Assembly: GCA_030040035.1 (NCBI GenBank)
Contig: JASHUJ010000186.1
Coordinates: 1 to 35,068, forward strand
DNA length: 35,068 nucleotides
DNA from: Thermoplasmata archaeon
Lineage (GTDB): Archaea > Thermoplasmatota > Thermoplasmata > Lutacidiplasmatales > UBA184
Direction of reading: 5' to 3'
The position numbers were made by a program, and so were the translations under genes. Within the stretch, counting starts at the first letter, position 1; each line of letters opens with the position of its first letter. Positions 12,236-17,510 of the stretch are shown piece after piece. The notes under the pieces were generated by a model. It saw nothing but the letters and a program-made list of their open reading frames with translations, had not been told where the DNA came from and did not search any database.

Positions 12236-13083
12236 GATCCCGCCTTCTCGCCGCTCGCCCGTCGCACCGCGCGCTCCAGGAGCGGGCGCACGATCTGTCG
12301 GCGGTACGCCTCCGAGGCGCGCTTGTCGCCGACGATCGGCGCGCGCGTGCTGAGCACGTGCGCGCCCCGGTCGAGGTCCGACCGGGCGGGCGGGAGCACG
12401 GGCCCGAGCGCGTCCTCGACCTCAGGAACCAGGAGCGGTCGCGGCGGGAAACCGGCGACCGCGACCCGCCAGCGGGCTCGGGCCGGGGAGTACGCGACCG
12501 CCACCGCCATCTGAGAGATATCGCGGAACGGCCGGACCCGCTGCCAGAGGTACGCCGACGGCCGCGGCTCGGGGAAGCGGACCGATCGGATCAGCTCGGC
12601 CGGTCGCAGCGCCGTCCGACGCGAACCGATCACGAACTGGTCGACCGGTACGGTACGCGCTCCCTGGGGCCCGACGAGGTCGATCTCCGCGTCCAGCGCC
12701 AACAGCATCGGCACGAGGTCGGACGCCGGGGCCGACCGTCCGAGGTTGCCCCCGAGCGTCGCCTGGTGACGGAGCGCGACGCTCCCGACCGCGCGGACCG
12801 CGGTGTAGAGGCCGGGCAGGCGCGTTCGCACCTCGGGGTCGGTCTCGAGACGACGGAGCGGCAGCGTGCTCCCGACCGTGAGGATCGGCCCGTTCCAGTC
12901 GAGCGTCTGCCAGGGCAACCGGCGGAGCGAGACGACCCGACGCGGCGCGAGTCGCCCGTCGTCGAGATCGAAGAGGAGGTCGGTCCCTCCGGCGAGCGGG
13001 ACGGCGTCCGAGGCGCCGAGCGCGCCGAGCTCGGCGATCGCCTCGTCCGGTGTCGCGGGGGCGACGAGCTCGAACGGCGCCAC
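12232..13083 (-). CDS. XDH/CoxM-family FAD-binding medium subunit
   Basis: LAGGTDL and ATLGGNL..SAPASD motifs; no 4Fe-4S insertion. GTG start at 13083 lies 24 nt after a minus-strand GATAAG box. Confidence 0.92.
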   Translation of the reverse strand: MAPFELVAPATPDEAIAELGALGASDAVPLAGGTDLLFDLDDGRLAPRRVVSLRRLPWQTLDWNGPILTVGSTLPLRRLETDPEVRTRLPGLYTAVRAVGSVALRHQATLGGNLGRSAPASDLVPMLLALDAEIDLVGPQGARTVPVDQFVIGSRRTALRPAELIRSVRFPEPRPSAYLWQRVRPFRDISQMAVAVAYSPARARWRVAVAGFPPRPLLVPEVEDALGPVLPPARSDLDRGAHVLSTRAPIVGDKRASEAYRRQIVRPLLERAVRRASGEKAGS

Positions 13084-13182
13084 GACCGTCCCAGCGCGAC
13101 GAGCCCGCTTATCGTTTGGTGGAACGGCGGTCCCGAGAGTCCCACTTTTTATCCGTGGAAGGAGTCCGGCTCGGCATCCTCC

Positions 13183-13710
13183 ATGCCTTTCGAGCTCGCG
13201 TTGCGTTACAGTACCCCGCTCACCCCGATTTCGGACCTCGACGAGGTGCTGCGCGAGTTCCTCCGCCTGGTCGGGTACTTGCCCGACGGCGAGGAGGGCC
13301 GCGGCTCCGAGGGGCCGATCGCGCAGAGCCTCGCCTACCGACTGGTTCGGGATTGCTTCCTCAAGGACCCCGCGCGCCCGTGGTACATCGAGGAAGTGAC
13401 CGCGGTCCTGAAGACGTCGAAGCCGACCGTGTACCGGCACATCAACAAGCTCAAGGCTCTCGATCTGCTGGAGGAGGTGGGGGGCGCGGCGGACGGCAAG
13501 GGCCGGAAGGGCTACCGGTTGCGCTACGGGAACCTCGCCCGGGCCTGGGACTTCACCGAGGCGAACGCTCAGAATGCCCTCAAGCGCTACCGGGAGACGG
13601 TGAACCACTTGCAGAGCCTCCTCGAGCAGCGCACCGCCGAGGCCGTGCCTCGGCTCCTCACCACGTCGGCGGGCGTGCGCGGGGCGCGCGAACGGGGCGG
13701 TCCGCGATGA
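13183..13710 (+). CDS. Winged helix-turn-helix (ArsR-like) transcriptional regulator
   Basis: HTH segment IEEVTAVLKTSKPTVYRHINKLKALDLLEE. ATG at 13183 lies downstream of TTTTTAT (13146-13152). Confidence 0.8.
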   Translation: MPFELALRYSTPLTPISDLDEVLREFLRLVGYLPDGEEGRGSEGPIAQSLAYRLVRDCFLKDPARPWYIEEVTAVLKTSKPTVYRHINKLKALDLLEEVGGAADGKGRKGYRLRYGNLARAWDFTEANAQNALKRYRETVNHLQSLLEQRTAEAVPRLLTTSAGVRGARERGGPR

Positions 13711-14012
13711 GCGCCCCGAACGCCGGCGCGAAGAAGCCGACGATCGGCCTCACGGCCGGCTCGCGCGTGCGGCTGCGCTCGGCCGGGCCCGATGACGAGG
13801 CGATCGTCTCGACCGGCATCTTCCGGGGCCTCGTCTCGATCGGAGGGGACAACGCCCTCGCGATCGAGCTCGAGGGGGCGGACGGGGACGAGAAGGGCCG
13901 CGTGCGGCTCGTCCCGATCCCGGCGCTCCTCGCGGTCGACATCCTCGAGGCGGCGAAGCCCGAGGAAGAGAAGCGGAACGAGCCGACGCCGTCGGCGAAC
14001 TACTTCCGGTAG
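13707..14012 (+). CDS. Small beta-rich hypothetical protein, translationally coupled to the HTH gene
   Basis: ATGA overlap at 13707-13710. MSAPNAG..GSRVRLRS..TGIFRG..RVRLVPIPALLAVDIL..NYFR, with typical GC3-rich codons. Confidence 0.75.
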   Translation: MSAPNAGAKKPTIGLTAGSRVRLRSAGPDDEAIVSTGIFRGLVSIGGDNALAIELEGADGDEKGRVRLVPIPALLAVDILEAAKPEEEKRNEPTPSANYFR

Positions 14013-14023
14013 ACGGCCCGGGA

Positions 14024-14123
14024 CGGGCTTGCTGGGAGTTCCGTCGCGCGCGCCCGCGCGATTTCGAACCCAGGTCGTTGGCTTCGAAGGCCAACAGGAT
14101 AGTCCAGACTACCCCACAAGCCC
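14024..14123 (-). tRNA. tRNA-Arg(UCG) with a 25-nt intron at position 59/60 (T-loop)
   Basis: Minus strand: acceptor GGGCTTG/CAAGCCC plus discriminator G; anticodon arm TTGGC-CTTCGAA-GCCAA (anticodon 14085-14087); T-arm CTGGG-TTCGAA[intron]T-CCCAG. Spliced length is 75 nt; CCA is not encoded. Confidence 0.93.
14038..14062 (-). other. Archaeal bulge-helix-bulge tRNA intron (non-canonical site)
   Basis: Intron ATCGCGCGGGCGCGCGCGACGGAAC. Central helix TTCG/CGGA, 3-nt bulges AA^A and AC^T, inner 7-bp helix TCGCGCG/CGCGCGA; the outer helix is the T-stem. Confidence 0.88.
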
Positions 14124-14174
14124 GACCTCCGGCCGGACGCGTTCGTCGCTATTTGGCCGTTCCGAGCGTACGGT

Positions 14175-17100
14175 TCACGGACCGCGGGGGCCGGCCGGGG
14201 CGGGGCGGAATCGGTCGAGCGTGGTCTGGGAGCTCGCGCCGGGGAAGAGCGTCGCCACCGAGTCGGCGAGCAGCTCGATGCGCTGGCGGACGTACGGCGT
14301 GATCCCGTCGATACCGGCGAGGCGTTGGGAGAGCGGCAGATACTTGCGGACCGATGCCTCGTAGACCGTCGAGAGGAGCTCGCCGTCGCACCGGGCCCCG
14401 CCGGGCCGCAAGGCGACGCACCGACCCGAGAGCGGCGGCCGTCGGTAGGACGTACCGCACTCCTTGCAGCGGAACTTCTGAGTCGCGTAGCTCTTCAGAT
14501 TCCCCATGACGTCGGGGAGGAAGTGGGCGTTGAGGACCAGCGTCACCGCCTCGGCGACGTCCACCGCGCGGATCTCGGCCGCGAGCACGGTCGAGCGCTC
14601 GACCATCTCGGCCATCGAGCGGCTCTCGCGGTACGCGGACCGGACCGGGCCCCCCGCGATGCGGCGGGTGTCGTGGGTGAACCGGTACGCCCGGAGCGCC
14701 TCGGGGGTCCCCAGGCGGCGGCCGACCTTGTCGAGGAGGCCGTCGACCTCCTTCGCCGGCCGCCGTTCGTCGGCGGCGCGGTAGAGCGCGAGCGGGTAGT
14801 GGGCCCCGACGTCCAGGTTGTGCGCCTCCTTGTCGACCTCGGTCGGGTCGATCCGCGTCGTCAGGACGAGGGGCTTGTCCATCAGCGCGCCGCGGCTCGC
14901 GGGCAGGTAGGCCCGGGAGAAGTTGAGGAGCGCATCGAGGAGCAGCGTGACGGAGTCCTCGTCCCCGTCGCAATTCCGCCGCTTCGCCGCGTGGAAGACC
15001 GGGTGGGCGAAGCAGGCCTCGGCCTCGGTGAAACCGAGGACGCGGCCCGCGACCGCCCCCGAGGTGTGGGGCGCGAGGGCGGTGACGATCTGCCCTACTA
15101 GGTCCTCGGGGCGCGCGGCCCGGTAGAATGGCTCGAGGTTGTAGAGGCGCACGAGCTCGTCATCGACGAACTGGGCGAGACGAGTGAGATACGTCCCGCA
15201 GGACCGGGAGACGATCAGGTCCTGCGGCGCGAGCTCGATCAGCTGCTCCGCGTCCGTGATCGGAGCCCCGGTCCAGTCCGTCGCGTAGCCGAGCCGCGCG
15301 AGCGTCGGGAGGTCGATCCCGATCTCCGCCGGGCGGAAGTGCGTGAGCGGGAGATCGGTGAGGTCGAATCGGGCCGTCCCGTCCTGGTAGACCGAGATCG
15401 CGTGGGTCGCCCGGAGGATCCCCTTCTCGAGCGGTTCCGGGACCTTGCCCGGCGACGTGAGGCCCTTGACGCCCTTGACGACGGGCACCTTGCCGAGATG
15501 CAGGCGGGAGAGCGCCTCGCTCCACAAGGGGGCGATCGGCAGGGTCTCGGAGACGACGCGGCCGGTCGGCTCGGTGTGGGCTCCGCACGGGCAGCGCGTC
15601 CAGACGGTGGTCCGACCGCACGCCGGGCAGGTCCGGACCCCGAGGTCGACCTTCGTGCCCTCGCGCATCGTGTTGCGGGCCGCCTCCGGCACCGAACGGC
15701 TCGCCCCGCCCGCCGTCCCGACCGGGAACAGCGCGTGGATGTTCGGCTGCATCGCCCGCTGGTACGCCTTCTCCGGTCGGCCGACGCGACCTCCGACGCG
15801 GGACGGGGCGCGCGCTCGTACCGACACTCCCGCCAATCGGCTCACGTAGTCCAGCGGGTCGGTTCCGGGAGGATCGAGTGCGACACGTCGGATGAGGAGC
15901 GAGCCCTCCACCGAGAGCCCGAGCGCCCCCACGAGCGCCGCGCTGGGGTCGGGCTCGCCCCGGAGTCGGTCCGGCTCGAGCGGGAACGACAGGAATCCCA
16001 GGCGGGCGAGCGGCTCGTGCCAGGACGGGTCGCGCGGTAGTTCGAGGGCGCCATCCCGCCAGCTACCGGATCGCTCGACGAACTCGGAGAGCGCTCGGAT
16101 CTCGGCCGTCGTGAGGTCGTGCCAGAAGAGGAGCCAGCGGGGGTGGAGCGGGACGGAGCGCTCGCGCGCGAGCGCGCTGGCCTCGTCGTACGTCGCGAGC
16201 GACGCCCCGTAGACCGGATCGACCCCGGCGGCCCGGAGTTCTTCGAGGTGGCGATCGAGGGAGTACGCGCCGGGCACGAGCGGACGGTTGTTCTCGACGA
16301 ACTCGCCGAAGGAGACGAGCAGCTCGCCGAGGTCGAGGATCCGCGTCACCCGGGGTCGCAGCTCCTCCGCCCGCGCGACGTCGTGGACCGCGGTCACGGT
16401 GCCGTCGTCGAGCTCGACGATCGGTCCGTCGATCGTGTCGCAGACCGCCATCGCGGTCGCCTTCCCAGGGTACTCGAGCTTGACCTGCGTGCCGATCGCC
16501 ACGAAGTGCTGGAGGATCACCATCGCCGCCGGGTTGATCGCGCACGCGGCGAGGCCCGTCGTCCGGGCCCGCCCGTAGACGAGCCGGAACCCGCCCGGGT
16601 GGTTCGGGTGCGCCAGGACCGGCCGGCCCCCGACCGAGTCCTGGAGGTACTTCGGCGTGCGCGTCTCCTCCTCGTCGACCGCGCCGTGGCCGATCTCGGC
16701 GAGGAACTCCCAGCCGTCGATCCCAAGGTTCTCGACGATCTTTCGCACCTTCGCGGCCTTCTGGCAGAGGCCCTCGGCGATCACGAGACACGCCCCTCCG
16801 CGGATCCCGTTGGTCGGGACGCGGGCCAGGTTGCGGAAGGAGCTCACCTCCGCGTCGCCCTCGGTCGCCTCGCCCGAGATCGCGACCGGCACGTTCCGGG
16901 CGATCCGTTCGATCTCCGCGGCGGTCGGCACGTACTGGAGGTGCTGATGGTACTTGTAGAGCGGGATCTCCTCCTGGTACCGCTCGACCTCGCCCGGTTC
17001 GGGCACGTACCGGGCGAGGCCAAGGTCGCGTCGCACGACGTCCGCGAGCAGGACGCTCAGCGCCTGCGCGGTCGCGCCCGCCGCCCGGATCGGTCCGGCG

Positions 17101-17510
17101 TAGTACAGCTCGACATACTGGCTCCCGTCGCGCGCGGGGCACACGTGGACCTCGGCGAGGCCCTCGAGCGGGGCGACCAGGATCCCTTCCGTCAGGATCG
17201 CGAGGCCGACCCGGAGCGCGGCATCGAGCCGGGCCTCCGTCGACGCGCCGCGCGAGGGGTCGCGGGCGAGGCGTCGGGCAATGGTGAGCGCGACCTCTTC
17301 CCGCGGCATCTGGGCGGCCAGGGCCCGGATCTCCGTCGAGATCCCCTCGATCCCGAGGTGGGCGAGCAGCTGCTCGACGCGGGAGGCCATGTCCTGTGCC
17401 CGCGGGATCTCGGTGCGCGCTTCGGGATCATACCCCTCCCGCCGCGCGCGCTCGGCGACCTCGTACGCCCGGTCGACCGAGGATTCGATCGCGCGAAAGT
17501 ACGATTCCAC
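14175..17510 (-). CDS. polC: DNA polymerase D large subunit (DP2)
   Basis: TEGILVAPLEG, YAGPIRAAG, GGFRLVYGRARTTG, KGVKGL..EPLEKGILRA, catalytic KRRNCDGDED, C-terminal Zn finger and PIP-box-like QTTLDRF. GTG start lies 23 nt after CTTAAG. Confidence 0.97.
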   Translation of the reverse strand: MESYFRAIESSVDRAYEVAERARREGYDPEARTEIPRAQDMASRVEQLLAHLGIEGISTEIRALAAQMPREEVALTIARRLARDPSRGASTEARLDAALRVGLAILTEGILVAPLEGLAEVHVCPARDGSQYVELYYAGPIRAAGATAQALSVLLADVVRRDLGLARYVPEPGEVERYQEEIPLYKYHQHLQYVPTAAEIERIARNVPVAISGEATEGDAEVSSFRNLARVPTNGIRGGACLVIAEGLCQKAAKVRKIVENLGIDGWEFLAEIGHGAVDEEETRTPKYLQDSVGGRPVLAHPNHPGGFRLVYGRARTTGLAACAINPAAMVILQHFVAIGTQVKLEYPGKATAMAVCDTIDGPIVELDDGTVTAVHDVARAEELRPRVTRILDLGELLVSFGEFVENNRPLVPGAYSLDRHLEELRAAGVDPVYGASLATYDEASALARERSVPLHPRWLLFWHDLTTAEIRALSEFVERSGSWRDGALELPRDPSWHEPLARLGFLSFPLEPDRLRGEPDPSAALVGALGLSVEGSLLIRRVALDPPGTDPLDYVSRLAGVSVRARAPSRVGGRVGRPEKAYQRAMQPNIHALFPVGTAGGASRSVPEAARNTMREGTKVDLGVRTCPACGRTTVWTRCPCGAHTEPTGRVVSETLPIAPLWSEALSRLHLGKVPVVKGVKGLTSPGKVPEPLEKGILRATHAISVYQDGTARFDLTDLPLTHFRPAEIGIDLPTLARLGYATDWTGAPITDAEQLIELAPQDLIVSRSCGTYLTRLAQFVDDELVRLYNLEPFYRAARPEDLVGQIVTALAPHTSGAVAGRVLGFTEAEACFAHPVFHAAKRRNCDGDEDSVTLLLDALLNFSRAYLPASRGALMDKPLVLTTRIDPTEVDKEAHNLDVGAHYPLALYRAADERRPAKEVDGLLDKVGRRLGTPEALRAYRFTHDTRRIAGGPVRSAYRESRSMAEMVERSTVLAAEIRAVDVAEAVTLVLNAHFLPDVMGNLKSYATQKFRCKECGTSYRRPPLSGRCVALRPGGARCDGELLSTVYEASVRKYLPLSQRLAGIDGITPYVRQRIELLADSVATLFPGASSQTTLDRFRPAPAGPRGP

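Follow-up and report, generated by a model that had tools for sequence, protein, structure and literature searches.

The tRNA-Arg(UCG) gene and its T-loop intron

The window, a stretch of 35,068 nt, is contig C122 of the MAG G000 (1.63 Mb, 70% G+C, 211 contigs, 73.7% complete, 0.26% contaminated). On its minus strand, the sequence from 14123 to 14024 reads as a 100-nt pre-tRNA-Arg(UCG) gene whose T-loop is interrupted by a short intron. The locus comprises the following elements, all on the minus strand:

14175..17510: gene for the large subunit DP2 of DNA polymerase II (PolD), the upstream neighbour, which ends 51 nt before the tRNA gene
14149..14156: A/T-rich CCAAATAG, about 29 nt upstream of G1
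14024..14123: pre-tRNA-Arg(UCG) gene, with G1 at 14123, discriminator G73 at 14024, and CCA not encoded
14063..14123: 5' exon, tRNA positions 1-59 (61 nt; the D-loop has extra bases)
14123-14117: acceptor stem, 5' strand
14087-14085: anticodon UCG within the 7-nt loop CUUCGAA
14032..14073: hBHBh' motif with the T-stem as outer helix, from the MFE fold and pair counts
14073-14069: T-stem, 5' strand
14068-14065: UUCG of the T-loop, positions 54-57
14064-14062: bulge AAA (3 nt)
14038..14062: intron of 25 nt between positions 59 and 60, consisting of A, a 7-bp GC hairpin with a 4-nt loop, CGGA, and AC
14061-14055 with 14050-14044: inner helix of 7 bp, closing a 4-nt loop (14054-14051)
14043-14040: CGGA, the partner of the T-loop UUCG
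14039-14037: bulge ACU (3 nt)
14024..14037: 3' exon, positions 60-73 (U60, T-stem 3' strand, acceptor 3' strand, discriminator)
14036-14032: T-stem, 3' strand
14031-14025: acceptor stem, 3' strand

Excision of 14062..14038 yields a 75-nt cloverleaf with a 7-nt T-loop that scores 125.2 in ARAGORN, compared with 107.7 for the program's own intron-less call at 14048..14123; the gain of 17.5 points is reduced when the excision is shifted by one base (123.6). In the MFE structure predicted by RNAfold for the 100-mer, the cloverleaf is complete and the T-arm is extended into a strict hBHBh' motif, which runs through 5 bp, 4 bp, a 3-nt bulge, 7 bp, and the 4-nt loop and is mirrored on the return strand. 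The energy of this fold is -51.7 kcal/mol (z = -3.93), and none of 200 shuffled sequences was as stable. The T-arm alone (42 nt) adopts the same fold (z = -2.72; 3 of 200 shuffles as stable). The central helix of the motif pairs UUCG with CGGA through one U-A, one U-G, one C-G, and one G-C pair. A tRNA-Arg(UCG) with a strict BHB intron at 59/60 had been predicted from the sequence, and this prediction proved exact with regard to sequence, MFE fold, ARAGORN gain, and coordinates, including the TTCGAAT T-loop and the 75-nt cloverleaf that removal of 14038-14062 was expected to restore. The locus is a real, conserved, intron-containing tRNA gene and thus an element of a known kind. The trinucleotide after its discriminator is UCC (window 14021-14023), whereas the tRNA-Glu(CUC) gene at C157:2660-2761 (plus strand) has an encoded 3' CCA.

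Introns of this type were searched for by a custom scan, in which BHB-compatible excisions were enumerated around tRNA-like matches and each was scored with ARAGORN. When the same excise-and-score procedure was applied to 23 intron-less tRNA regions of G000, the largest gain was 0.4 points. Together with the covariation control described below, this places the Arg(UCG) intron above chance expectation. The gene had also been described as hidden, which is only partly true: ARAGORN does call a tRNA-Arg(tcg) at the locus, yet without the intron and with a wrong 3' end. The Rfam tRNA model reaches 23.8 bits here at a permissive threshold, below the cut-off of 29 bits, and no Rfam match was obtained anywhere in the window at the gathering threshold.

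Archaea need a UCG anticodon to read CGA, a codon that occurs 14 times in the adjoining gene for the PolD large subunit and 11 times in another neighbouring gene. No other tRNA with this anticodon was found in G000, at its completeness of 73.7%, by ARAGORN, Rfam, or the R1 model introduced below, and a DNA search revealed no second strong Arg(UCG) match in 24 congeners. An intron-less tRNA-Arg(UCG) elsewhere, which according to the original prediction would, together with a missing spliced product, point to a pseudogene in the window, was thus looked for and found neither in G000 nor as a second match in a congener. The only CGA-reading tRNA gene found in this genome is therefore one that ARAGORN mis-calls and that falls below the Rfam cut-off, and genomes with genes of this kind will receive too low a score wherever completeness is judged by the number of tRNAs.

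The A/T-rich CCAAATAG upstream of the gene is, judging from its sequence, likely a TATA-type promoter element of the archaeal kind; CCAAATA is found at the same distance upstream in the contigs of two relatives (loose ends at 14124/14126). On the other side of the gene, a plus-strand frame (13050-14012) ends 12 nt from the tRNA 3' end, and its last codons, Tyr-Phe-Arg-stop, are conserved in the flanks of most congeners. Since the corresponding ORF of 320 aa lacks a Pfam match and overlaps a gene for an FAD-binding dehydrogenase on the minus strand, the real gene is probably short and starts after 13608.

Conservation of the intron and RNA data

Forty relatives, of which 24 are congeners, were included in the DNA search. 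A match spanning the intron was found in 23 of the 24 congeners, one of which (G020) has its copy split across two contigs; G021 contains no Arg(UCG) orthologue and only a weak match to another tRNA. A weak second match in G001 (query 75-118), considered as a possible att remnant that included the intron, was dismissed as an unrelated, chance GC-rich hairpin. All 24 orthologous sequences, the gene in the window and those of 23 congeners, carry an insertion of 23-34 nt at 59/60 and have an outer helix with 5/5 pairs and the 3' bulge AC^U. The central helix has 4/4 pairs in 23 of them and 3/4 in the remaining sequence, L022, which comes from G019, an unpublished genome.

The covariation alignment consisted of 22 orthologues after removal of this last sequence and of the partial L026. 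Standard pairs account for 97.8% of its pair cells, and each of the seven pairs of the inner helix shows compensatory changes on both sides. Two pairs covary in the T-stem and two in the anticodon stem. The central helix is paired in 100% of the cells and varies between U-A and U-G, on the intron side only. The observed covariation score was not reached by any of 500 shuffles, and sliding the partners by 1-3 columns lowered pairing to 36-52% of cells. Pairwise identity amounts to 95% in the exons, 50% in the intron hairpin, and 90% in the six 3'-terminal bases of the intron, and all 22 introns are distinct. A drifting hairpin between conserved exons and a conserved 3' intron end indicates selection on structure and on the geometry of the splice sites rather than on the intron sequence.

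Outside the genus, an intron at the same site occurs in another family (f3) of the same order, where the Arg(UCG) genes of G026 and G028 contain strict BHB introns of 13 and 11 nt, respectively, at 59/60 and an additional intron at 37/38. The 59/60 intron of this gene is thus present in families f1 and f3; it is absent from G027 (f2), G031, G033, G034, and G039. In G027, the Arg(UCG) gene (L200, G027:C20:5850-7000, about 41-333) has a 37/38 intron of ~216 nt instead, which is full of short repeated hairpins of the GGGTG...CCCC type, and the G030 gene begins alike.

In six RNA runs, 4-7% of the sampled words were present, and four of these metatranscriptome runs, one per study, were compared with the window. 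No joint across 14038-14062 was found in these four runs, and four contigs from relatives (records 1, 2, 3, and 6) run through the unspliced intron; they may represent DNA carry-over or precursor RNA. Read depth in the metatranscriptome runs is higher over the 5' exon. Furthermore, three short contigs (studies X3 and X5) end at 14061, 14062, and 14063, which is the 5' splice site, without loose ends there. Their ends are at most a weak hint of cleavage; co-occurring relatives share the 5' exon and differ from the first intron bases onward, so that an assembly graph would break at the same place.

The lack of a spliced product in the four RNA runs would be in line with a disrupted pseudogene, in which the 25-nt insertion is never removed. 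Such a gene would, however, hardly be expected to look as it does in the relatives: the insertion, its cleavable geometry, and compensatory changes are kept in 24 of 24 orthologues and the exons have remained 95% identical, while the gene is the only one found with a UCG anticodon and an essential gene uses CGA codons. A pseudogene is thus very improbable. Even less credible, to the point of being negligible, is the uninterrupted 76-nt tRNA that ARAGORN reports from 14123 to 14048. Its score of 107.7 is surpassed by 17.5 points by the excised form, mismatches and G-U pairs weaken its acceptor and T stems, and its 3' part lies in a stretch that differs in every relative in the alignment.

T-loop introns across the genome and the class

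The intron had been regarded as unusual for this genome, a view that has to be abandoned: at least 13 of the 40 credible tRNA genes of G000 have an intron at 59/60, and introns at this site are routine in the lineage. The twelve further genes encode Gly(UCC), Gln(CUG), His(GUG), Glu(CUC), Arg(UCU), Ala(GGC), Asn(GUU), Ser(GCU), Ser(GGA), Lys(UUU), and, with two genes, Ser(CGA); the Lys(UUU) gene has a second intron in the D-region. Their T-loop introns measure 29-38 nt, contain GC-rich hairpins, and share the layout seen in Arg(UCG), in which GUUCRAA is followed by the GC-rich hairpin, a 4-base complement of UUCR, two bases, U60, and the T-stem. The genes are located as follows:

C149:7104-7207, plus strand: tRNA gene with 59/60 intron
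C195:6503-6609, minus strand: tRNA gene with 59/60 intron
C35:9135-9241, plus strand: tRNA gene with 59/60 intron
C157:2660-2761, plus strand: Glu(CUC)
C67:13078-13186, minus strand: tRNA gene with 59/60 intron
C67:4842-4945, plus strand: tRNA gene with 59/60 intron
C124:4299-4402, minus strand: tRNA gene with 59/60 intron (same sequence on C14)
C181:2940-3054, minus strand: tRNA gene with 59/60 intron
C131:5012-5129, minus strand: tRNA gene with 59/60 intron
C6:215-334, plus strand: Ser(CGA)
C199:2616-2735, plus strand: Ser(CGA)
C151:9429-9571, plus strand: Lys(UUU)

The other tRNA genes among the 40 comprise 23 without intron, two with a 37/38 intron, and two with a D-loop intron only. Eleven extra calls were obtained from ARAGORN with anticodon-loop introns enabled (10-192-nt "introns"), most of which were unsupported by the BHB-aware scan; with low scores of 101-107 points, those on C62, C204, and C207 were taken as false and excluded from the gene count. 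The introns of the D-loop or D-arm have a weaker BHB geometry with 2-3 outer pairs (C117:5927-6026, minus strand; C133:13156-13263, minus strand; C151:9429-9571, plus strand). They sit in an initiator-like tRNA-Met, in tRNA-Pro(UGG), and, as the second intron, in Lys(UUU), and those of Pro and Met are also found in G007. The exons of the two tRNA-Ser(CGA) genes are identical, but their T-loop introns, both of 33 nt, and their flanks clearly differ. The two genes are paralogues or else lie on contigs of two strains that ended up in one bin.

The central helix is not equally perfect in all 13 T-loop introns of G000. It has 4/4 pairs in five of them (Arg-UCG, Gly, Gln, His, and Lys) and 3/4 in seven, where the defect always is A57 opposite G, while the intron of Asn has 2/4. 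An A opposite G in the same place also occurs in the canonical 37/38 intron of the elongator tRNA-Met in three genomes, and from these sequences such a mismatch is probably tolerated.

A survey of other tRNAs in the lineage, one of the checks suggested with the original prediction, showed that 59/60 introns are widespread. G007 has at least 11 T-loop introns; at least four occur in G026 (f3), including one in Arg(UCU) that was read by eye, and at least three each in G027 (f2) and G033 (f6). The combination of a T-loop and a D-region intron in Lys(UUU) is shared by G000, G027, and G033. For a broader census, a covariance model (R1) was trained on 20 class-I pre-tRNAs interrupted at 59/60 and applied at a threshold of E <= 2e-14, whose specificity was checked on five genomes. 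In these five test genomes all 22 matches at threshold were at least 100 nt long, every inspected one had a T-loop intron, and the best intron-less tRNA scored 61.9 bits. The Arg(UCG) gene, a member of the training set, scores 95.4 bits. Of 151 genomes sampled across the class, 108 have at least one R1 match. The matches are most numerous in the family of the window, where 15 of 15 genomes (including the unpublished G128) have 7-10 matches each, compared with 0-4 per genome in other families; in some families no match was found, for example in the 12 genomes searched of f20 and the three of f15. All these counts are lower bounds, because R1 scores are lower for class-II tRNAs and for introns that are very short and AT-rich.

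The organism of the window probably belongs to the Lutacidiplasmatales (TMEG), which are known as inhabitants of acidic soils with 2.1-Mb genomes of about 69% G+C, according to their description (PMC9287336), whose main text does not contain the word "intron". With most subscription journals outside the search, no paper on tRNA introns of Methanomassiliicoccales, Lutacidiplasmatales, or Thermoplasmatota was found. The supplement to the tRNAscan-SE 2.0 paper (PMC8450103) has a row of coordinates and a score for a tRNA-Lys(TTT) of Candidatus Methanomassiliicoccus intestinalis, newly detected by tRNAscan-SE 2.0, whose length of 139 nt fits the two-intron Lys(UUU) mentioned above. Thus, current software already detects such genes in the class.

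Splicing enzymes and the persistence of the intron

The splicing endonuclease, whose type the original prediction had proposed to determine, could be assigned to a single gene of the two-unit alpha'2 type. This gene, the only endonuclease gene found in G000, is located at C89:3-749 and truncated by the contig start, so that the architecture of the enzyme rests on the congeners, where EndA has 354 aa. Two matches to PF01974 and no other significant match were obtained in one ORF each of G000, G007, G003, G002, G026, and G028, and in the G007 protein PF01974 and PF02778 each match twice. The best relative of solved structure is the alpha'2 EndA of A. fulgidus (1r0v/2gjw; E = 5e-30, residues 34-336). 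A Tyr, a His, and a Lys in the C-terminal unit are aligned with identical residues of this enzyme, and we take them to be the catalytic triad. The EndA proteins of A. fulgidus and Thermoplasma acidophilum likewise consist of two units in a single polypeptide, but are shorter (305 and 289 aa, respectively), the extra residues of the lineage's protein being mostly in the N-terminal, non-catalytic unit. EndA enzymes of broad specificity bear a specific loop (CSL/ASL) with a Lys that is inserted near the catalytic His. Next to the His of the lineage's protein, there is no insertion relative to A. fulgidus EndA, and this stretch is three residues shorter. Six residues, among them a Lys and an Arg, are inserted at about 241-246 in the N-domain of the catalytic unit (L036:1471-2535, minus strand; EndA of G007), a place that may or may not correspond to that of the loop. 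Relatives of this EndA show 60-89% identity in Thermoplasmata archaeon and 38-51% in Methanomassiliicoccales, which agrees with the earlier impression of a Thermoplasmata-like genome. A gene for an RtcB-type ligase is located at C25:12-659; it covers profile positions 1-213 of 426 and is truncated by the contig end.

The gene, its motif, their conservation and covariation, and the genes for EndA and RtcB are all observed. With high probability, the locus is a tRNA-Arg(UCG) gene whose strict-BHB intron at 59/60 is spliced by the alpha'2 EndA and RtcB and belongs to a lineage-wide set. How the gene is transcribed, where its RNA is cut in vivo, and how the halves are joined we infer as follows, along the standard archaeal pathway. 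The locus would be transcribed as a precursor of ~100 nt, in which U54-G57 would pair, before splicing, with the CGGA close to the intron's 3' end. By this pairing the T-stem would continue into the 4-bp helix, the two 3-nt bulges, and the 7-bp hairpin. The alpha'2 homodimer would then cut each bulge between its second and third base (A59|A and C|U60), the ligase would join the halves, CCA would be added, and the product would be a 75-nt tRNA reading CGA (and CGG).

Why the intron persists is a separate question. The favoured explanation is a passenger that persists since only its exact loss is viable. It would be neutral or selfish and would either have a single ancestral origin or have spread between tRNA genes by means of the 3' segment that pairs with the T-loop, and as a single-copy essential gene, tRNA-Arg(UCG) would tolerate only a precise deletion. 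This explanation has somewhat better than an even chance of being correct. It accords with the conservation of only those parts that form the BHB, while the hairpin has 50% identity and is distinct in 22 of 22 sequences, with the recurrence of one architecture at 59/60 in 13 different tRNA genes of G000, and with the patchy distribution of the Arg(UCG) intron across families. The inner sequences of ten distinct T-loop introns of G000, however, show no obvious resemblance by eye, and conservation across a genus of more than 24 species would also fit selection. The site 59/60 itself is probably favoured because the 3' segment of the intron pairs with the near-universal UUCR of the T-loop, a design that would fit any tRNA.

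Alternatively, the intron might be kept as a shield against integrating elements, as had been suggested with the original prediction; this would explain its persistence and not its identity. Integrases commonly use attachment sites that span the 3' half of a tRNA gene, and the idea of a shield is reportedly part of the hypothesis of "tRNA genes in pieces". In G007, an intron-less tRNA-Ile(GAU) gene adjoins a gene for a tyrosine integrase (PF00589, 47.2 bits) at a distance of 129 nt, and the part of this tRNA gene from the anticodon stem to the 3' end is repeated 38.7 kb downstream as a direct repeat of 63 nt with 95% identity. The element signature is located at:

G007:C2:1458373-1459040 and 1497159-1497221: integrated-element signature (loci L198 and L199)

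Elements thus seem to integrate at tRNA genes in this genus, in the present case at an uninterrupted one. A protective role would also be in line with the higher number of class-I genes with T-loop introns in the family than elsewhere in the class. However, the integrated element is a single case that provides no comparison of rates between interrupted and uninterrupted genes, and an att site could equally include the intron. The shield is therefore the less convincing explanation and rather unlikely, and the passenger remains preferred.

Introns of this kind have precedents in other archaea. In Candidatus Micrarchaeum acidiphilum (ARMAN-2), the pre-tRNA-Pro(GGG) has strict hBHBh' introns in the T-loop at 53/54 and 59/60, and introns at 59/60 include strict and relaxed forms (Fujishima et al. 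2011, PMC3239211). The site and the strict T-arm motif are the same as in Arg(UCG), whereas the enzyme of ARMAN-2 is a three-unit epsilon2 EndA of broad specificity with a specific loop, in an organism in which 56% of the tRNA genes are disrupted; the enzyme described here is a two-unit alpha'2 EndA from Thermoplasmata. Another 59/60 intron (PMC5829648, published in 2018) has the same position but is a relaxed hBH motif, which was not cut by the alpha'2 EndA of A. fulgidus in vitro, whereas the Arg(UCG) intron is strict and has both bulges. Thermoproteales and Thaumarchaeota likewise have many tRNA genes with BHB introns outside 37/38 (PMC8450103). However, their EndA is of the (alpha-beta)2 type with the Crenarchaea-specific loop, and their introns occupy many positions and often are relaxed, whereas 59/60 dominates here.

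In Hirata 2019 (PMC6379350), the alpha'2 enzymes of A. fulgidus (1r0v/2gjw) and T. acidophilum (2ohc) are listed as narrow in specificity. This paper and PMC5829648 discuss alpha'2 enzymes mostly with 37/38 introns and ascribe the handling of relaxed motifs to (alpha-beta)2 and epsilon2 enzymes only. Under these rules, a strict hBHBh' motif would suit a narrow alpha'2 enzyme wherever the intron sits. Abundant non-canonical tRNA introns, however, usually accompany an (alpha-beta)2 or epsilon2 EndA, as described in PMC5829648 and PMC3239211, and an alpha'2 lineage with many such introns, nearly all of them at 59/60, departs from this usual picture. While the Arg(UCG) intron on its own is a point of annotation, its lineage comes as a mild surprise given how alpha'2 endonucleases are viewed in the field. 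The imperfect central helix in 8 of the 13 introns suggests that its EndA is more tolerant than the model enzyme of A. fulgidus, as far as can be judged from sequence. The site 59/60 may also be a hotspot, at which an intron that pairs with UUCR could move between tRNA genes or be selected for breaking attachment sites. A joint reading for this family of Lutacidiplasmatales-like soil Thermoplasmata, in which 59/60 introns in about one third of the tRNA genes are family-wide, depend on an alpha'2 EndA alone, a type regarded in the field as limited to standard introns, and reflect both a more tolerant enzyme and an insertion hotspot, is tentative and has the odds against it. What an alpha'2 enzyme accepts, and why 59/60 is favoured, are the questions that this lineage raises.
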